Source: Candidatus Riflebacteria bacterium HGW-Riflebacteria-2
GTDB lineage: Bacteria; Muiribacteriota; Ozemobacteria; Ozemobacterales; Ozemobacteraceae
Assembly (NCBI GenBank): GCA_002839435.1
Contig: PGYA01000016.1
Span: 64,001 to 74,609 of the forward strand
Direction of reading: 5' to 3'
DNA: 10,609 nt
Under the pieces are notes generated by a model. The model was not told the DNA's origin. It saw only the letters and a program-made list of their open reading frames with translations, and ran no database searches. Positions 3,389 through 10,609 of this stretch are shown here, piece by piece. How positions within the stretch are numbered: position 1 is the stretch's first letter; every line of letters begins with the position of its first letter. A program made the position numbers and the translations under genes.

Positions 3389-3976
3389 TTACAGCAGCGC
3401 TTTTAAAATCAGTGAACGGGCCTGGCTGATATTTCGCGAGACAGCTGGTGGAAAGGGCAAAACGAATACCTGCTCGGCCGTGTCGCTGACGAAGCGGATG
3501 ACGGCGCCGTTTAGCTCCCTGCCCTGCATGGCTTCGGCGAAAAAGAAGCTTTCCATATCGACCAGGCTGGCGTCGTATTTTGCGGCCAGTTGTGCGCGGT
3601 CGTCTCTGGTGATTGCCGGCTGGTCGACAGTTACAACTGCTGCCGGCGGCAGGTCGGCCGGGGCGGGCAGCTCAAGCTGACGACAAGCGTAAAAAAATCT
3701 GTTGCAACAGAACAGCTGGCCCACCTGCAGTTCGGGCGCGAGCGCTCCGGCTGCGCCAAATAGGATTATGCGTCGATAGCTGGCCTGTGTCAGTTCTCTA
3801 TCGAGCAGCGCAAACAAAGGGTCGCCGCCGGCGGCATTGGCTGTGACCAGCCGGCCACCTTTAAAAAACCAGCTTGCAGCGTCTGATTGCCGGCAATCTG
3901 GCAGGATAGCGGCCAGCAGCCTGGCTTCGGCTTTGAACGGCGCCAAAATAAGAGTCTGCGGGTCTGTCGGGCTCAT
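3389..3976 (-). CDS. MTA/SAH-nucleosidase (PNP_UDP_1) family protein, short futalosine-hydrolase-like form; candidate 5'-deoxyadenosine nucleosidase
   Basis: 195 aa. The segments ILFGAAGAL, VVTVDQPAITRDD, SLVDMESFFFAEA and AVIRFVSDTAEQ align by eye with the E. coli Pfs motifs INTGSAGGL, VSGDAFINGS, AVEMEATAIA and VRAISDVADQ. This includes the catalytic Glu in the (V/D)ME context and the Asp of the SD motif. The start overlaps the upstream gene stop by 4 nt (ATGA). Confidence 0.8.
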   Translation of the reverse strand: MSPTDPQTLILAPFKAEARLLAAILPDCRQSDAASWFFKGGRLVTANAAGGDPLFALLDRELTQASYRRIILFGAAGALAPELQVGQLFCCNRFFYACRQLELPAPADLPPAAVVTVDQPAITRDDRAQLAAKYDASLVDMESFFFAEAMQGRELNGAVIRFVSDTAEQVFVLPFPPAVSRNISQARSLILKALL

Positions 3977-5022
3977 TTCTGCAGACTCCGGTCAAGCATC
4001 TTTTTGAGATCCGCGCTGCCGAAAGTTGTGTTTTTTAGGCGTTCCCAGACTTCGGGGGTTTCCATGCACATGTAGATCGGCACGTCGACGAAGTGTTTCT
4101 GCAGACCGGCGCGGGCAAAATTGTAAATCTGCTCGCGGAAAGGCCTGAAATATCTGATCTTACCGTCAGTCGAAGGGTAAAATTCTTCGGCGAGAATGCC
4201 GGTGTCAGGGTGATATTTTTCGACGTTTTCCTGAAACCCTTTTGGGAAGCGAAAAGTGCCCAGGGAAATCCAGTTGATCTTAAGTCCGTGCAGATATTCG
4301 TGCATAAGCGCGAATACTTCTGAATAGCGTTCCTGCCAGTTCTGCAAGGGCAGTAACGGATCGAAATGAAACGCCAGCGCGCAGCCTTTTTCTCGGGCAG
4401 CCGAGGCTGCTGCATTCAGGCGCTCACGCAGTGAGGCCGCGCCATGTTCGAGGCGATCGATGTATTCCTGCGGATTCAGCGAAAAGGCCAGAGTTACGTG
4501 GCGCGCATCTTTTGCCTGCATTATTGCCTTTATATCAGAGCTTTTGCTTTTGACTTCGAGCGTGAAATCAGGCATTCCGGCGGTCCATTCAATGATCGCA
4601 GCGTTGAGCGGGAAAATTCCTTCGAGCGCGAGCGGATCGCCGAACTGGCCGGTGCCAAGTCTGATTGGCCCGCTGATGCGTTCGCGCAGGTCGATGATTT
4701 CTCGGCGGCAGTCTTCCCAGTTCAAGAAAAGTGTTACATCGCCGGCGCCGGTATAATTCTGGATTATGCAGTATTCGCACTCGAACGGGCAGCCCATCCC
4801 CCACTCCACTACCCAGTAACCGCAGCAGACGCTGCCTTTCTGACCCGGACATGGTTTTACAAACGCCCCGCGATTGAGAGTGAGCAGCAGACCATCGCCT
4901 GGATGCTGTTCGCCGCTGACTTCATGCCGCTGCTCAAATTCAATCAGGCTCTCGATCTGTTTTGCCAGCGGCAGATCCTTGACCCGCTCATCAACATAGA
5001 GGTTTTTGAAGCTCAGATTCAT
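3973..5022 (-). CDS. Radical SAM protein of the spore-photoproduct-lyase (SplB/SPL) family
   Basis: 349 aa. The N-terminal NLYVDERVKDLPLAKQIESL matches the SPL N-terminus VYIEPRALEYPLGKELKDKF of B. subtilis SplB. The radical SAM triad GCPFECEYC (C78-x3-C82-x2-C85) sits where SplB has CMGHCHYC. A second block, FSLNPQEYIDRLEHGAASLRERLNAAASAAREKGCALAFHFDPL, matches SplB FSINADYVIKNFEPGTSPLDKRIEAAVKVAKAGYPLGFIVAPI. ATG start with a 2-nt spacer after the ParB-like gene stop. Confidence 0.85.
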   Translation of the reverse strand: MNLSFKNLYVDERVKDLPLAKQIESLIEFEQRHEVSGEQHPGDGLLLTLNRGAFVKPCPGQKGSVCCGYWVVEWGMGCPFECEYCIIQNYTGAGDVTLFLNWEDCRREIIDLRERISGPIRLGTGQFGDPLALEGIFPLNAAIIEWTAGMPDFTLEVKSKSSDIKAIMQAKDARHVTLAFSLNPQEYIDRLEHGAASLRERLNAAASAAREKGCALAFHFDPLLPLQNWQERYSEVFALMHEYLHGLKINWISLGTFRFPKGFQENVEKYHPDTGILAEEFYPSTDGKIRYFRPFREQIYNFARAGLQKHFVDVPIYMCMETPEVWERLKNTTFGSADLKKMLDRSLQK

Positions 5023-5024
5023 TA

Positions 5025-5855
5025 TTAAAGCTCTTCGACGGCCGCGAAAATTGCATCGACTGCGGCCTGAGCTTCGGTTAAACGGCCGCTGTGCCGGCGG
5101 GTCAGATTGCAGGTCAGCTGCATGCCGGGTTTAGAAAACGTCTGGTCGATTTTTATGGTTATTCCTGGCGGCAGCGGGTTTTGTTCGAGGGCACGCGCGA
5201 ATTTGTCGAGCGCATCAGTTCTGCGCGGCTGCGCCAGGCGCTGCAGGTTTTCGAGTGCTTCGGCAGCATTGTTGCCGGGTAGTTTTTCTGGTAGAACTCT
5301 CTTTCGCTGGGCCTGCCGCAAAAACATCGCGATATTGCGCTTTTCAGAGACCGTGCCGGGCATGGTCAGCAGATCAAAGGCAAAAAGCTTCATGTCATCA
5401 CCAAGATGTGCAAGCTCTCGCCATATATTGAGCGGCAGATTATGCTTGCCACATTCAGGATGACAGAGCAGATTGCACCCGATAAAGCGCAGGGCAAGAC
5501 GTAGCTGGGGCGAGTCGGTGCATCCGGCCAGCTTCAACATTTCAGCATGATCTGATGGCGCACAGCTGGCAAATGCGGCTGTCAGCTCGCAAGCACTCAA
5601 CTCTCGATGACTGTTCAATTGAACAAACAGCAACGCCGGCAACCCGGTTGCTTCAATACAGGGCACACTGCTGTGCCCTAGTTCTTTAAGGGCAAGAAGC
5701 CGCCGGTGCCCGTCACAAACAGTGTTCTGAGCGATAACCAGTGGTTGTAAAACACCATTTTCTCTGATGCTGCACAACAATTTCTCTTCAACCGGCGCCG
5801 TGAATGAATCAATCAGTGGCATCAATTCATTTATCTGAACTTCAATAATTTTCAT
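5025..5855 (-). CDS. ParB/Srx-like nuclease-domain (ParBc) protein with a C-terminal extension of unknown function
   Basis: 276 aa with an ATG start. The N-terminal ~90 aa (LIDSFTAPVEEKLLCSIRENGVLQPLVIAQNTVCDGHRRLLALKELG) shows the ParB-like nuclease domain pattern (hydrophobic-DGHHR-l-A-k-lG). The remaining ~180 aa are Cys/His-containing with no motif I recognise. First gene of the three-gene operon. Confidence 0.7.
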   Translation of the reverse strand: MKIIEVQINELMPLIDSFTAPVEEKLLCSIRENGVLQPLVIAQNTVCDGHRRLLALKELGHSSVPCIEATGLPALLFVQLNSHRELSACELTAAFASCAPSDHAEMLKLAGCTDSPQLRLALRFIGCNLLCHPECGKHNLPLNIWRELAHLGDDMKLFAFDLLTMPGTVSEKRNIAMFLRQAQRKRVLPEKLPGNNAAEALENLQRLAQPRRTDALDKFARALEQNPLPPGITIKIDQTFSKPGMQLTCNLTRRHSGRLTEAQAAVDAIFAAVEEL

Positions 5856-5863
5856 GATACCGC

Positions 5864-5892
5864 ATTGTAACGCATACCGGCATCACCATCAA
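5864..5892 (-). promoter_or_regulatory. Candidate sigma70-like promoter for the ParB-like/SPL-like/MTAN-like operon; would give a near-leaderless transcript
   Basis: On the minus strand the sequence reads TTGATG-N17-TACAAT, with the -10 hexamer ending 8 nt before the ATG at 5855. No Shine-Dalgarno precedes this ATG. This assumes sigma70-type promoter rules apply to this organism. Confidence 0.25.
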
Positions 5893-6286
5893 GCAGCATA
5901 AGAGAGTTCATGGTATAACCCGCCCGCCGGCGACAGCTCGGCGGTCTGTTCTGCTCTAGTGGCCGTTACTCAACTAATTCGATCATAATCGAACTATTTG
6001 CATAAATTGTAGTTTAATTCTTTTATGATCAAATTTAATGAGCAGATCTTGTATTGGCAGATGAACCTGCTTGATTTTCTTCTTTAGCAGATAGATCCTG
6101 GAGAGCCGCGGTCTGAATTGGTCGCTGCGCAAAAAAACATACATGAAAGTTGGCTGCATCATATTCTTTTGTACGTATTTTCACTTACAGGCTGTTTGCG
6201 ACTTTTATGTAAGAATTATAGTAGTTCAGATGTAATACCTGTATGTGATTTTGGCTATGATAAGAGAAATGAATCCTCTCTGAATG

Positions 6287-6316
6287 GAGCTGCCTGCGCG
6301 GGCAGCTTCTTTTTCT
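6287..6316 (+). terminator. Canonical Rho-independent terminator (GC-rich hairpin plus T-tract) on the plus strand with no annotated upstream gene
   Basis: The stem agctgcc (6288-6294) pairs with ggcagct (6301-6307) across a 6-nt loop tgcgcg, and g6287:t6308 adds a wobble pair. The stem is followed immediately by tcttttttct. The reverse complement has no U-tract, so orientation is plus. Confidence 0.5.
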
Positions 6317-6372
6317 GAGCTATGATCCACTATTTTTAAATTTTGAGCTGTTTTGCAGCATTGCCCGCATTT

Positions 6373-6405
6373 CTAAAGAGCGCAGGGGTGAACCACGCGA
6401 AACCC
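6373..6405 (-). pseudogene. Orphan 3'-terminal remnant of an FGE-sulfatase-domain gene
   Basis: The 23 nt at 6383-6405 (caggggtgaaccacgcgaaaccc) match 22/23 with the 3' end of the FGE-domain gene (8294-8316, caggggcgaaccacgcgaaaccc). 19 nt also match the internal domain junction at 9399-9417. The minus strand here reads ...HHFGFRVVHPCAL*, against WKGFRVVRP* in the gene. The stop codon is mutated TGA to TGC and only ~14 codons are open upstream. Confidence 0.4.
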
Positions 6406-6416
6406 GAAATGATGAG

Positions 6417-6445
6417 TTGCAGATATTCAATCACCATGTTATTAT
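6417..6445 (+). promoter_or_regulatory. Candidate sigma70-like promoter upstream of the NTase-fold gene
   Basis: TTGCAG-N17-TATTAT at 6417-6445, about 37 nt upstream of the TTG start at 6483. The match is weak and assumes sigma70-type rules. Confidence 0.25.
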
Positions 6446-6482
6446 TAAGTTATACGTAAATACATTGTGGTAATAAATTATT

Positions 6483-7067
6483 TTGAATAGTCTAAGTTGC
6501 GAAAACTTAAAAGAGATTCTGAGTCGTCTCAGCGAATTGATCAGCCTTGAGACAAACCAGTGCTTTGAACTGGTTGTCTGCGGCGGTTCGGCTCTGATAG
6601 CACTTGGTTTGATTGAGCGAACTACGCGTGACATCGATGTTGTCGCTGTTGTAAAAGGCAATTTATTTGCGGACCCCGAACCCTTGCCGGCAGAGATGAT
6701 TAAAGCCGCTGCCAGAATTGCTCAATATTCAGATTTACCGGCTGACTGGTTGAACACGGGGCCTGCCGATATCTTCAGAATGGGGTTGCCAGATGGCTTT
6801 GGCAACAGGCTCGTTACCTGGCATGTCGGCAGGAACCTTGTCATACATTTTATCAGCCGGCTGGATCAGATTCATTTCAAACTCTACGCAGCAGTCGATC
6901 GCGGGGGATATCACATAACAGATCTCATGGCTCTCAACCCATGTGACAATGAAATTCTGCAGGCTGCGAGATGGGCACGAACTCATGATGTCTCTGATGG
7001 TTTCAAAGAAATGCTTGAATTCCTTTTAAAGGAACTGGGTTATGAAAGAATCATTGCTGAATTATAA
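6483..7067 (+). CDS. Minimal nucleotidyltransferase-fold (Pol-beta superfamily) protein; candidate toxin/antitoxin or defence component
   Basis: 194 aa. The NTase signature hG[GS]...D-x-D is present in ELVVCGGSALIALGLIERTTRDIDVVAV. The C-terminal helical part (HFKLYAAVDRGGYHITDLMAL) is typical of small NTase toxin/antitoxin proteins. The only in-frame start near the 5' end is TTG at 6483 and there is no clear RBS. The 3' end overlaps the next gene by 26 nt. Confidence 0.55.
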   Translation: MNSLSCENLKEILSRLSELISLETNQCFELVVCGGSALIALGLIERTTRDIDVVAVVKGNLFADPEPLPAEMIKAAARIAQYSDLPADWLNTGPADIFRMGLPDGFGNRLVTWHVGRNLVIHFISRLDQIHFKLYAAVDRGGYHITDLMALNPCDNEILQAARWARTHDVSDGFKEMLEFLLKELGYERIIAEL

Positions 7068-8076
7068 AAACCAGCTGCTGGAAAAGATGCTAAAACTTCT
7101 CTGGTCGGGCTGGGCACAGCTTGGCGTTGCAGGTTATAAACCAGTCCGCTGGAAAAGGGTTATCGACATCGAAGCCTTGATTCTGACCACATGCTTCTGG
7201 GGAAGATACGATCAACGGCTTTTTGATGAAATGCTGTCCTGGTTGCTGGCAAACGAAAGGTTTGTCAATATTCAGCGGCTCCAGACCATCATAAAAAAAG
7301 AGACTTTTCATGAACCGGGACTTCTTGGGCCAATAAGCCGCAAACTCTGCAGAAAAAATCGTACCCCGAAATGGCGTGGAATAGCAGGAAAACTGGAAAG
7401 ACAGCAGGCAGTATTACAGCCTGAAAAGCTGTTTTTGTTTCCTGATAATAAACCATTGCCTGTTATCGGCGCAGCCGACGATGATTTTGCTGAGTGCGGC
7501 TTTCTGCGACTGCCCTTTATAGATCGTCAGCTGTCGACAGACTTTACAACAGGGGTGGCGGCAACGCTGCAGCTACAGTTGCGGGCTTTTTTCGGAGTAT
7601 GTTCGCGAGCTGAAATCATGCTTGCATTTTTTATCAACAATCAGGCGAGTATAAGTGATATCGCTGCCAGCTCTTATTATTCATGGAAATCTATTCAGGA
7701 AGCTCTTTTTGAAATGTCTCATTCTGGCATTGTGAGCCATCCTGCGTCTAAGCGGGAAAGGCGTTACTATCTTGCCTCAGAAAACTGGACAAAACTGTTT
7801 ATTGGCCAGGAAACGGACTGCCCCGAAAAATTCCACTGGTGCAAATTTTTCAGCGCCATGGAAATTCTCTGGCAAAAGGTCACTAACCCTGCCTTCGGCA
7901 ATTTATCAGAGAAAAGCATGGATATTGAAATTGCAGATCTGGTAAACCAACATCTGCAAAGCCTGTTAACAGCAGCCGACGAAAATTGGCGGGTTTCTTC
8001 TCCCGCAACATCCTGTGAAAACTTCCTTGCAACTTTCTCGGCCTTTATAATCACTCAGCTTAAACAGCTTCAGTAA
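7042..8076 (+). CDS. Hypothetical protein (344 aa) overlapping the NTase-fold gene; putative cognate partner
   Basis: Long open frame with an ATG start (MKESLLNYKNQLLEKML...). Overlaps the preceding gene by 26 nt. GC appears lower than the flanks. I recognise no catalytic motif. Confidence 0.55.
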   Translation: MKESLLNYKNQLLEKMLKLLWSGWAQLGVAGYKPVRWKRVIDIEALILTTCFWGRYDQRLFDEMLSWLLANERFVNIQRLQTIIKKETFHEPGLLGPISRKLCRKNRTPKWRGIAGKLERQQAVLQPEKLFLFPDNKPLPVIGAADDDFAECGFLRLPFIDRQLSTDFTTGVAATLQLQLRAFFGVCSRAEIMLAFFINNQASISDIAASSYYSWKSIQEALFEMSHSGIVSHPASKRERRYYLASENWTKLFIGQETDCPEKFHWCKFFSAMEILWQKVTNPAFGNLSEKSMDIEIADLVNQHLQSLLTAADENWRVSSPATSCENFLATFSAFIITQLKQLQ

Positions 8077-8190
8077 CCTTCTCTCACACAGGCTTCACAG
8101 AAAAAAATGTGCCCGGTGGTAGTCGCGCTGTGAGCGGGAAGCGCTGCGGCTTGCCGCCTTCGCGCAACCCGCTCTCCGCACGCTGTCGCA

Positions 8191-8219
8191 CCCAGCTTCG
8201 GCTTGAGGCCGAAGCCGGG
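8191..8219. terminator. Strong GC-rich hairpin between convergent genes, without a U-tract
   Basis: ccc-a-gcttcggc-ttgag-gccgaagc-c-ggg forms a perfect 8-bp stem (8195-8202 with 8208-8215) plus three outer GC pairs across a 1x1 mismatch. It lies in the 216-bp GC-rich spacer between the plus-strand gene ending at 8076 and the minus-strand gene ending at 8293. Neither side has a T-run, so it is either a non-canonical terminator or another structured element. Confidence 0.3.
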
Positions 8220-8292
8220 AATGGATAATAATGGATCGTCACAGGATATGGTTTATACCTGACCGCACTATGATTGAGAAGCCTGGGTTAAC

Positions 8293-10609
8293 TCAGGGGC
8301 GAACCACGCGAAACCCTTTCCAGTTGGAAGCGGAAGCCATGCCCGCGCTATAACGACTGGGGAAGTAGCTGGGGTTGCTGCCGCCGCTGCCGCCACGACA
8401 GACCCGTCCTGAAGAACCAGTTAAAGCGCCGTGATAGTCATAGACAGTATTGCTTGGGTAGTTTTCAAAAAAGTCCCAGCACCATTCAAATACGTTACCG
8501 CTCATGTCATACAGACCCAGTTCATTCGCCAGTTTTGTTCCAACCGGGTGGGTCTTGAAGCTTGAATTATCACTAGACCAGGCATAATCGCCGACGGTAT
8601 TACTGCTATTGCTGCCAGCAAATGGCTTTGCATAACCAGTTAAATTAACTCCACCGCTCACGGCACCGGGTTGACTGTCCTGGTCAGCGCCCATTGCTGC
8701 CCACATCCATTCCATTTCGGTCGGCAGGCGATAACCATTAGCCGACCAGTTGCAGGTCGCCGCATCCCAGTCGGTATTAGTAGTGGTCGGTATTGCTGCG
8801 TAGGTAAGCGTCGAAAAGTCAACGCTATTAACTTCGTAGACAGGCGTCAGGCCTTCGGCAATACTGAGTTTGTTACAGAACGCGATCGCGCAATACCAGT
8901 TTGTGAATTGCACCGGGTCGGTGACGCCATTTGAAGTCTCTGTCACGCTTGGGTCAGATCCCATAATTGCACTGAACTGCGTTCTGGTAATCTCATGCTG
9001 GCTCATTCTGAAGCCTTTGGTGATTATTGAAATATTCGCCTCATCAGAATCCCGCTGAAACGACCCCGCTGGCACATACTTCAACGTCCCGATAGTTGCA
9101 GATGAGTAGTCACCCCATATCTGCTTGGCAGAGCTGTAAACGGTGCCGCTGTAGCTGTCTTTGCCGGCGGCGGCAACACGAACGTATTTACCGCTAGCTG
9201 TTTTGGCCAGATCAACGACATAAGTATTGGTGGTGACACCTGCAATATCGGCCCAACCGGCCGAACCGTCATCGCTGACCTGCCACTGATAAGTAACGGC
9301 GGCATAACTCGGGGTCAGTGCCCCGGCGGTCAGTGTCTGACCACTCTTTGGCAAACCAGTAATGCCACCAATCTCAGTCACCGGCACAATCACTGAGCGA
9401 ACCACGCGAAACCCGAAGCCGTTGCCCTGGTAGTTCGGGCTGCTCCTGTTACGGAAGGCCACGGTAGCTTTGTCCGCGGCAAAGGCCCAGCTACCGCCGC
9501 GCATCACACGGTCCGAGCCAGTTCCAGCACCACGGTAATCGGAGTTAGAATTCTCGGGGTAAATGTTATACCAGTCCCAGCAGAATTCCCAGGCGTTGCC
9601 ACTCATATCAGAGATGCCAAGTTCATTCGCCTGTTTTGTTCCAGCAGGGTGAGTCTTGCTGCTAGCATTATCAAAATACCATGCATAATCTCCAACTGCC
9701 CCCCCCATGCCCTCGCCAGCATACGCTTTATTGTATCCGGTAGTATTGGTTGCACCAGGATTGCCTGTGTCAGCGCCCATTGCTGCCCACATCCATTCCA
9801 TTTCGGTTGGCAATCGGTAACCATCTGCAGCCCAGTTGCAGGTCGCAGCGTTCCAGGTTGGGTTGTCACTTGTCGGCACTGCACCCCAGACAGACGGATC
9901 GGTTGAGCCGCTGATAGTGTAGACCGGAGTCAGGCCTTCGGCAATGCTCAGTTTGTTACAGAATGCAATCGCATGATACCAGTTAGCCATCTGCACAGGG
10001 TCGGAGACTCCGTTCGAATAGCTTGTATTACTCGGATCAGTACCCATAATCACATTGAACTGAGCCCTGGTTATCTCATGCGCGCTCATGCTGAACGCCG
10101 AAACAAATGATGTGTTTGCCGCGGTTGCGTCACGCTGAAAGGTTCCGGCGGTAACACTTACCATGGTCGGCATTCCCAGAATCTTTTCGGCAGCACTGAA
10201 AACCTCACCACAATAAGACCCATTACCTGTAGCAACAAGCCGGACATATTGCCCTGCAGCTGATTTGGCAGGATCAACTTCATAGCTGGCTGTAACGGCA
10301 CCGGATATATCAAGCCATGCGTTAACGCCATCATTACTTACCTGCCATCTATAATCAACCGTAGCCCCAACAGGAGTTATTTCTCCAGCTGTCAGCGTCT
10401 GCCCGCTCATCGGAATACCCGTAATCGCACCTATTGCGGTCACCGGTTCAGCGGTGGCTGCAAAAACAATTGAGACCAAACCCGAGTTGGCAGCATTGGT
10501 AGAAGTTCCGCCGGCAACTGTAAAGAAGTTTTCAGCAACGCCAGTCAGCGTAAAGCCGGCCTTCGGCGTAAGAGTTACTGTCGCAGTGTAAACTGTGCCT
10601 GCAGCAAAG
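8293..10609 (-). CDS. Large secreted/surface-type protein, 5'-partial (runs off the window end): Big-like segment plus 2 x [Ig-like domain + FGE-sulfatase (SUMF1/EgtB/PvdO-type) domain]
   Basis: The ORF-track start at 10479 is a TTG. The frame stays open to 10609 (…FAAGTVYTATVTLTPKAGFTLTGVAENFFTVAGGTSTNAANSGLVS IVF…), so the true start lies beyond the window. There are two FGE-domain copies with the hallmarks GYRLPTEMEWMWAAMGAD, DMSGN(A/V)(W/F)E(F/W)CWD, RGGS and GFRVVR. Each is preceded by an Ig-like module (ITG(I/L)P(M/K)SGQTLTAG...Y(R/Q)WQVS(N/D)DG). Confidence 0.85.
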   Translation of the reverse strand, partial: FAAGTVYTATVTLTPKAGFTLTGVAENFFTVAGGTSTNAANSGLVSIVFAATAEPVTAIGAITGIPMSGQTLTAGEITPVGATVDYRWQVSNDGVNAWLDISGAVTASYEVDPAKSAAGQYVRLVATGNGSYCGEVFSAAEKILGMPTMVSVTAGTFQRDATAANTSFVSAFSMSAHEITRAQFNVIMGTDPSNTSYSNGVSDPVQMANWYHAIAFCNKLSIAEGLTPVYTISGSTDPSVWGAVPTSDNPTWNAATCNWAADGYRLPTEMEWMWAAMGADTGNPGATNTTGYNKAYAGEGMGGAVGDYAWYFDNASSKTHPAGTKQANELGISDMSGNAWEFCWDWYNIYPENSNSDYRGAGTGSDRVMRGGSWAFAADKATVAFRNRSSPNYQGNGFGFRVVRSVIVPVTEIGGITGLPKSGQTLTAGALTPSYAAVTYQWQVSDDGSAGWADIAGVTTNTYVVDLAKTASGKYVRVAAAGKDSYSGTVYSSAKQIWGDYSSATIGTLKYVPAGSFQRDSDEANISIITKGFRMSQHEITRTQFSAIMGSDPSVTETSNGVTDPVQFTNWYCAIAFCNKLSIAEGLTPVYEVNSVDFSTLTYAAIPTTTNTDWDAATCNWSANGYRLPTEMEWMWAAMGADQDSQPGAVSGGVNLTGYAKPFAGSNSSNTVGDYAWSSDNSSFKTHPVGTKLANELGLYDMSGNVFEWCWDFFENYPSNTVYDYHGALTGSSGRVCRGGSGGSNPSYFPSRYSAGMASASNWKGFRVVRP
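8296..9393 (-). repeat. Tandem duplication unit B (Ig-like + FGE domain, residues 363-728 of the visible ORF)
   Basis: Copy offset from unit A is about 1.09 kb. Long near-identical nucleotide runs support this, e.g. 8689-8721 and 9777-9809 (gcccattgctgcccacatccattccatttcggt), and 8850-8880 against 9939-9969. Confidence 0.7.
9394..10452 (-). repeat. Tandem duplication unit A (Ig-like + FGE domain, residues ~11-362 of the visible ORF)
   Basis: The two units are colinear at the protein level and match at most positions, with long identical blocks such as LTPVY, CNKLSIAEGLTPVY, GYRLPTEMEWMWAAMGAD and KTHP(A/V)GTK(Q/L)ANELG. The unit boundary falls exactly after GFRVVRS. Confidence 0.7.

Follow-up and report, generated by a model that had tools for sequence, protein, structure and literature searches.

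What is encoded by the two overlapping low-GC genes that stand apart from their neighbours in the genome of Candidatus Riflebacteria bacterium HGW-Riflebacteria-2? They lie in a 10,609-nt stretch of DNA (contig PGYA01000016.1 of assembly GCA_002839435.1, positions 64,001 to 74,609 of the forward strand), hereafter the window, and code for a minimal nucleotidyltransferase (NTase) of the DNA polymerase beta (Pol-beta) superfamily and for a partner protein of 344 aa. An earlier reading made from the sequence alone, which we call the original prediction, had seen in them a possible toxin-antitoxin (TA) or abortive-infection module. The analysis presented here reveals that the pair is a widespread, hitherto undescribed module. 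We consider that it is probably a TA or defence module resembling AbiE and MenAT (i.e., type VII-like), with the gene order reversed, an NTase from a different family and an antitoxin of a new architecture. Both open reading frames (ORFs) and their overlap lie exactly where the original prediction had placed them:

6483..7067 (+): NTase gene, 194 aa, TTG start, DUF6036 nucleotidyltransferase, putative toxin
7042..8076 (+): partner gene, 344 aa, ATG start, unnamed family, putative antitoxin and regulator
7042..7067 (+): overlap of 26 nt between the 3' end of the NTase gene and the 5' end of the partner gene
6406..6482 (+): 5' end of the operon with its putative promoter, by sequence inspection only

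Two sets of loci bear on whether the genes belong together, namely 66 partner-anchored loci from a scan of one genome per species and 81 NTase-anchored loci from metagenome or viral contigs, 79 of which have any room downstream of the NTase gene. The partner gene directly follows the NTase gene in all 79 of the latter, and the NTase gene directly precedes the partner gene in most of the 66 former; the NTase gene comes first in every paired locus, that of the window included. The genes overlap by 26 nt in 65 loci, 20 nt in 47, 32 nt in seven, 23 nt in three and 16 nt in one. Since the pair and its overlap recur in more than 120 independent loci, their juxtaposition is not due to chance. The two genes constitute an obligate module. 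The conserved overlap of 16–32 nt points to translational coupling, which is also suggested in the window by the location of the ribosome-binding region of the partner gene (GGAACTGGG) inside the NTase coding sequence.

The module is patchily distributed across about 10 phyla. Its hosts include Riflebacteria, Lentisphaerota (Victivallales and Oligosphaera), Spirochaetota, Nitrospirota, Hydrogenedentota, Verrucomicrobiota (several Akkermansia), Aminicenantes, delta-proteobacteria, Fibrobacterota and metagenome-assembled genomes (MAGs) related to Actinomycetota. About 10 species-level Akkermansia/Akkermansiaceae MAGs carry it (L047-L050, L054, L056-L058, L061 and L062), including several from faecal, rumen or rectal sources.

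The NTase belongs to DUF6036 (PF19502), which it matches with 36.4 bits against a gathering cut-off of 23.6 (residues 8-163 on profile positions 2-133). Its sole other match in Pfam and PADLOC is AbiEii, for which the PADLOC models give E = 3e-4 and 0.05 and the Pfam model stays below its cut-off; this is the outcome of the profile search that the original prediction had proposed. The NTase has 2,689 relatives in a protein collection clustered at 90%, with strong conservation (mean column identity 64%); nearly all of the 120 NTase homologues among the matches listed carry the precomputed PF19502 annotation. The Pol-beta signature that had first been noted (CGGSALIALGLIERTTRDIDVV) is present in the window protein, and an alignment of 36 homologues revealed its key residues to be invariant, with C33, G34, G35, R46, T48, D50, D52, K133, A136, D139, H144 and D147 retained throughout and Y143 likewise. 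These residues fall into four motifs:

Motif I: C33-G34-G35-S36
Motif II and putative phospho-acceptor: R46-T47-T48-R49-D50-I51-D52
Motif III: K133-L-Y-A-A-V-D-R140 (K133-L134-Y135-A136-A/S137-V138-D139-R140)
Variant motif IV: Y143-H144-I-T-D147

The motifs of the DUF1814 (AbiEii) family have been defined as hG[GS]-x15-DhD for I and II, KLxAaxxR for III and +DxxD for IV (Dy et al. 2014, PMC3985639), and classical Pol-beta NTases have a spacer of 9–13 residues between motifs I and II, whereas that of DUF1814 is longer (PMC3985639). In the DUF6036 protein 14 residues separate C33-G34-G35 from D50-I-D52, which makes this a spacer of the long DUF1814 type. Motif III likewise follows the DUF1814 pattern, with R140 conserved in at least 90% of the homologues and the ‘aromatic’ position occupied by A or S. 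Moreover, the protein shares with the AbiEii and MenT toxins a Ser/Thr two residues before the DxD and an Arg two residues further upstream, such that R46-x-T48-x-D50-x-D52 is in the same register as R37-x-T39-R40-D41-x-D43 of MenT1 and R63-S64-T65-x-D67-x-D69 of AbiEii. The Thr of this loop in MenT1 and AbiEii is phosphorylated by the toxin itself upon antitoxin binding (PMC11375011; bioRxiv 10.64898/2026.01.19.700257). In the structural model of the NTase the loop that precedes strand 2 carries T48, which is also where the corresponding Thr is found in MenT1 and MenT3; like the toxins of the Mycobacterium tuberculosis systems MenAT1 and MenAT3, the NTase combines the R-x-T-R-D-x-D loop with a catalytic Lys in the C-terminal helix (PMC11375011). 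A sequence search of the PDB with the NTase profile returned nothing significant (best match 5uvd, E = 0.63), and no homology to MenT is detectable at the sequence level with HMMER. Because DUF1814 motifs I-III and the MenT/AbiEii register are kept, yet the PF08843 cut-off is missed, the NTase represents, as judged by its sequence, a family of its own that neighbours AbiEii and MenT in the Pol-beta superfamily, outside PF08843.

The partner, which had been described as an unknown protein, has no match in Pfam, NCBIfam or PADLOC and no meaningful match in PHROGs. A word-indexed search recovered 38 homologues, and when 1.84 billion cluster representatives were searched with a profile, 2,227 sequences matched at E<=1e-3, 562 of them at E<=1e-30; thus, the partner represents a large, unnamed family. 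Its structural model, which is confident (pLDDT 90.8, pTM 0.91), has three domains:

Residues 1-120, 7042..7401 (+): N-terminal all-helical domain, from the model
Residues ~171-250, 7552..7791 (+): central winged helix-turn-helix (wHTH) domain, recognition helix SWKSIQEALFEM, wing KRERRYYL
Residues 251-344, 7792..8073 (+): C-terminal helical domain, variable (majority fraction 0.24-0.56)

The conserved positions of the N-terminal domain comprise W21, W24, G28, G31, D42, GRYDQRLFD (residues 54-62) and NIQRL (residues 76-80). Conservation in the protein peaks here, in residues 41-80 (majority fraction 0.70-0.83), and not in the wHTH; no structural match to the domain was found, and we propose it as the domain that binds and neutralises the NTase. 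The central domain is a wHTH of the MarR/ArsR-like type according to the model and fold comparison, which corrects the earlier impression that the partner has none. A PDB sequence search with the partner profile gave nothing significant, the best matches being wHTH proteins at E ~0.04-0.1. As regards the HEPN motif Rx4-6H, its reported absence is borne out: the motif is missing because no His is invariant or nearly so among the 38 homologues. A HEPN fold or a nuclease-like fold was likewise not found in the partner, and we ruled it out as a HEPN protein on the lack of both a conserved His and the HEPN fold. Membership in AbiEi was also ruled out, with none of the AbiEi models of Pfam matching any of the 38 family members at E<=1. 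Two longer members of the partner family carry putative C-terminal fusions, to a Schlafen AlbA_2 domain in P0210 (780 aa) and to DUF5677 in P0175 (666 aa); either may be a read-through of gene calling.

The presence of a MarR-like wHTH beside an NTase raises an alternative, in which the NTase nucleotidylates a small molecule, be it an antibiotic, as ANT(2'') does, or a metabolite, and the partner is a ligand-responsive regulator. We regard such a regulator-enzyme pair as unlikely. The NTase has no match in NCBIfam, the home of curated resistance families, and does not fall among the ANT(2'')-like enzymes; its R-x-T-x-D-x-D and KLxAxxxR are instead motifs of the DUF1814 toxins. The concentration of conservation in the non-wHTH domain of the partner also speaks against a primarily regulatory protein, and a regulator would not usually be linked to its target gene in 79 of 79 loci with an overlap strictly within 16-32 nt. 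A further point comes from the way in which the two genes decay.

Of the 60 partner-anchored loci that extend far enough upstream, 48 have an intact NTase, nine a degraded one and three none, whereas all 47 NTase-anchored loci that extend far enough downstream keep an intact partner; in L135 an otherwise intact ORF has an in-frame insertion of 40 residues. Loss of the NTase (12/60) thus exceeds loss of the partner (0/47; Fisher p = 0.001), in a comparison that sets two different collections, MAGs and metagenome contigs, against each other and in which MAG frameshifts counted as NTase decay can be assembly errors. In L062 the partner is intact and the NTase lacks its N-terminal half; the cstA context is common to L034 and L035, with the NTase alone deleted in L035. 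That the NTase can be lost and the partner never is the pattern expected of a toxin and its antitoxin, which lends substance to the TA module originally suspected. Together, obligate linkage, patchiness and one-sided loss give the pair generic genomic hallmarks of a TA system. In a resistance operon the opposite should be seen, i.e., the enzyme retained, whereas here it is the enzyme that decays repeatedly and the supposed regulator that is kept.

The same asymmetry bears on the possibility that the roles are reversed, as in MntA/HepT, with the NTase being an antitoxin that nucleotidylates and thereby inactivates a toxic 344-aa partner. The gene order would fit, as in HEPN/MNT systems small NTases upstream of their partners are antitoxins (PMC7641770), and here too the NTase comes first. 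However, the 12 loci with an intact partner and a degraded or missing NTase would be lethal were the partner the toxin, and the decay pattern thus argues against MNT/HEPN-like reversed roles. With neither the HEPN Rx4-6H, nor a conserved His, nor a nuclease-like fold in the partner to support a toxic activity, this arrangement appears improbable, and we return to the NTase as the putative toxin.

How does the pair compare with the known systems? AbiE, which a 2026 preprint has moved to type VII (bioRxiv 10.64898/2026.01.19.700257), was first described as a type IV TA and abortive-infection system. As exemplified by Lactococcus and Streptococcus agalactiae, it resembles the pair in being a bicistronic operon that is widespread but patchy and has a Pol-beta-fold NTase (PMC3985639; bioRxiv 10.64898/2026.01.19.700257). 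AbiEii shares with the NTase the long G[GS]-to-DxD spacer, a motif III of the KLxAxxxR type and the Thr before the DxD (T65 in AbiEii, T48 here), and AbiEi shares with the partner a winged helix, which is also found in MenA3. The differences are equally clear. The NTase is ~100 residues shorter than AbiEii; the partner, unlike AbiEi/COG5340, has its wHTH in the middle of a three-domain protein of 344 aa and not at the N-terminus. It is also unlike MenA1, a peptide of 7.4 kDa, and the AbiEi-like MenA3; the MenAT antitoxins have unrelated folds and all act on the same toxin loop (PMC11375011). The HEPN/MNT systems (HepT/MntA, type VII) likewise have a small NTase first in a two-gene operon, but in them the NTase serves as antitoxin to a HEPN RNase. 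The pair thus differs in layout from both AbiEi/AbiEii and MNT/HEPN, as the original prediction had remarked. The Pfam entry for DUF6036 gives neither a function nor a partner, and we found no description that mentions the obligate downstream family or the toxin-like motifs.

We arrive at the following proposal for how the module may work. The AbiEii and MenT toxins, a class that has come to be understood recently, block translation by extending the 3' ends of tRNAs, and an auto-phosphorylation induced by the antitoxin switches them off. By analogy, the DUF6036 NTase would be a toxin that adds nucleotides to tRNA 3' ends, the likeliest target, or to another RNA, thereby halting translation. 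The partner would be an antitoxin whose translation from the overlapping second gene is coupled to that of the NTase; its N-terminal helical domain may bind the NTase and block it directly or, alternatively, the partner may induce auto-phosphorylation of the NTase at T48, as in MenA1/MenT1, MenA3/MenT3 and AbiEi/AbiEii. The wHTH probably represses the operon promoter; this autoregulation is the weakest part of the mechanism because no inverted-repeat operator was found. The cellular role could be addiction or a defence of the abortive-infection type. Toxicity, target, auto-phosphorylation, DNA binding and a role in defence are thus all properties that we infer for the pair from its likeness to these systems.

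Several observations weigh against an AbiE/MenAT-like module, in addition to the two limits on the decay counts given above. The Pfam score for AbiEii/DUF1814 (PF08843) is 19.5 against a cut-off of 22.5 and covers residues 29-81 only, and in place of the +DxxD of motif IV the NTase has Y-H-x-x-D, with His for the first Asp and no preceding basic residue. The order of the genes is reversed: in AbiE and MenAT the antitoxin gene precedes the NTase gene, and here the NTase gene is first. The putative antitoxin (344 aa) is much larger than the putative toxin (194 aa), and none of the PADLOC models matches it. Upstream of the NTase gene no inverted-repeat operator of at least 8 nt was found. We found no paper that mentions DUF6036 or PF19502 and no experiment on the family. 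As for the genomic surroundings, defence genes are a minority among varied housekeeping neighbours, and tblastn found no match in either the 72,556 plasmids of PLSDB or the 50,697 phage records of INPHARED. We nevertheless favour the AbiE/MenAT-like reading over its rivals. If it is correct, the module would constitute a third, very large branch of NTase toxins beside AbiEii and MenT, with the partner family by itself comprising over 2,000 clusters at 50% identity and having an architecture without a solved or named relative. Its hosts belong mostly to uncultured phyla, and also include gut Akkermansia. It would put names to two families now annotated as hypothetical or DUF, and would allow the generality of the R-x-T-x-D-x-D auto-phosphorylation switch to be tested.

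The neighbourhood of the pair varies widely. Frequent families among 150 neighbouring ORFs are type I restriction-modification subunits, PD-(D/E)XK transposases, KilA-N, the TOTE system, PIN and DUF4143/AAA_14, and the flanking genes are not conserved even among Riflebacteria. In IMG/VR one of 2.9 million viral contigs carries the NTase. In a further locus (L010, 5328-9838) a solo partner homologue without the NTase directly follows the AEP-helicase protein of a TOTE conflict system; a calcineurin-like metallophosphoesterase lies downstream at a gap of 2 nt and a RelB/RelE-like pair nearby, and this is possibly an alternative pairing of the partner family.

Within the window itself, the pair differs in composition from its surroundings, as had been noted: the GC content is 0.463 for the NTase gene and 0.452 for the partner gene, and that of third codon positions (GC3) is 0.462 and 0.461, respectively, against 0.52-0.59 and 0.53-0.65 in the flanking genes, all of which are higher. 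The AT-rich spacer described upstream of the NTase gene spans 5856-6482 (627 nt, 40% GC). The low-GC segment, 1.9 kb in length, is bounded by a direct repeat:

6383..6405: left 23-nt copy CAGGGGTGAACCACGCGAAACCC, left edge of the low-GC segment
8294..8316: right 23-nt copy, 22/23 identical to the left, true 3' end of the FGE gene

The right copy encodes the end of the FGE gene (GFRVVRP*) and the left one is an orphan fragment reading GFRVVHP. These are the two matches to the 23-mer in the window at <=1 mismatch, with none in 200 shuffles, and the similarity ends at the edges of the repeat, which looks like an insertion or duplication scar. The foreign composition and the bracketing repeat indicate that the module was probably acquired horizontally, as a foreign segment of 1.9 kb. 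Such acquisition, which the original prediction had also suggested, is in keeping with the non-core status of the pair, its patchy occurrence across about 10 phyla and its unrelated flanks.

Direct repeats of at least 15 nt flank the pair in 15 of 86 loci as opposed to 17 of 820 control frames of the same geometry, which overlap one another, an approximately 10-fold excess (p = 2e-8). They range from 15 to 167 nt or more in length. In the Riflebacteria MAGs that are the closest non-identical relatives, the pair is bracketed by transposases: in L003 it lies between two directly oriented, 89%-identical PD-(D/E)XK transposase genes of the PDDEXK_2, Rpn/YhgA-like type (4791-5789 and 7758-8750), and L004 has the same bracket (6303-7220 and 9264 onwards), in a composite-transposon-like arrangement. 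Elsewhere, in genomes of Oligosphaera, Akkermansiaceae and Victivallales, the pair lies between copies of repeats, tandem or dispersed: tandem arrays in L043 (6300-7330 and 9130-9700) and, with units of 169-170 nt, in L057 (4377-4953 and 6760-7336), and a duplication of 127 nt in L051 (7193-7319 and 9013-9139).

An excess of this kind, together with the repeat at both edges of the low-GC segment in the window, might be taken to mean that the NTase and the wHTH protein form a minimal cassette which itself promotes insertion and leaves terminal direct repeats; this would account for repeat-bracketed pairs in 15 of 86 loci without a recombinase. We consider such self-mobilisation very improbable, given that the repeats are heterogeneous and differ widely in length, unlike the target-site duplications of a dedicated transposase, that 71 of the 86 loci have no flanking repeat, and that neither the NTase nor the partner showed a recombinase-like fold or motif. 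We take the repeats to mean that the pair resides in variable regions prone to recombination, and to be insertion or duplication scars; we see in them no evidence of a dedicated transposition mechanism. An origin as integron cassettes with attC sites was considered by eye, without an attC search, and set aside: in the window because the 23-mer lacks a palindrome and simply forms the last part of the FGE gene, in the other loci because the repeats are transposase genes or tandem arrays.

Turning to the 5' region of the operon, no canonical start lies between an in-frame TAA (6474-6476) and the TTG at 6483, no purine-rich Shine-Dalgarno sequence precedes it, and the resulting length of 194 aa is that of the closest homologues; the TTG start without a ribosome-binding site, as originally read, is thereby upheld. 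ATG is the start codon in 120 of 126 loci, and TTG is also used in the Riflebacteria loci L004 and L005. Inspection by eye identified a candidate promoter, TTGCAG-17 nt-TATTAT, at 6417-6445, and an extended -10-like element TGGTAATAA at 6469-6477 ends 5 nt short of the TTG; the consensus promoter scan listed none in 6406..6482. A leaderless mRNA as a general feature was rejected, with -10-like hexamers ending at -7 to -9 in only ~20 of 120 loci. No RNA genes were found in the window by Rfam (E<=1) or a tRNA scan.

Upstream of the spacer, the minus strand carries an operon (3389-5855) coding for a ParB_N-like protein (22.9 bits in Pfam, below the cut-off), a radical SAM protein of the spore-photoproduct-lyase (SPL) family and a PNP_UDP_1/MTAN-like protein. 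Synteny of the pair with this operon did not hold up: a tblastn search with all the window neighbours across the 66 partner loci detected ParB/SPL/MTAN beside the pair in none except L001 and L002 of the same organism, which rules out a link between them. Likewise, the other genes of the window (radical SAM, TPR, L,D-transpeptidase, MTAN-like, SPL, ParB-like and FGE) do not travel with the pair beyond L001 and L002. The pair would thus be an independent, horizontally acquired insert outside the ParB/SPL/MTAN operon. On its other side, the FGE gene (8293..10479, minus strand; in full 973 aa, L001 11811-14732) codes for a large protein in which similar repeats of ~100 residues stand before each of two tandem FGE-sulfatase-type domains, the internal repeats being ~57% identical.

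In the AT-rich spacer, outside the repeat-bounded segment, a strong hairpin resembling an intrinsic terminator (6286-6309, plus strand; 10 pairs and then the T-run TTTTTCTG) is found where a 66-aa ORF (6118-6318) ends. No Rfam family matches the hairpin. ORF and hairpin are conserved only in the sister contig L002, and could represent a small RNA or a small protein gene.

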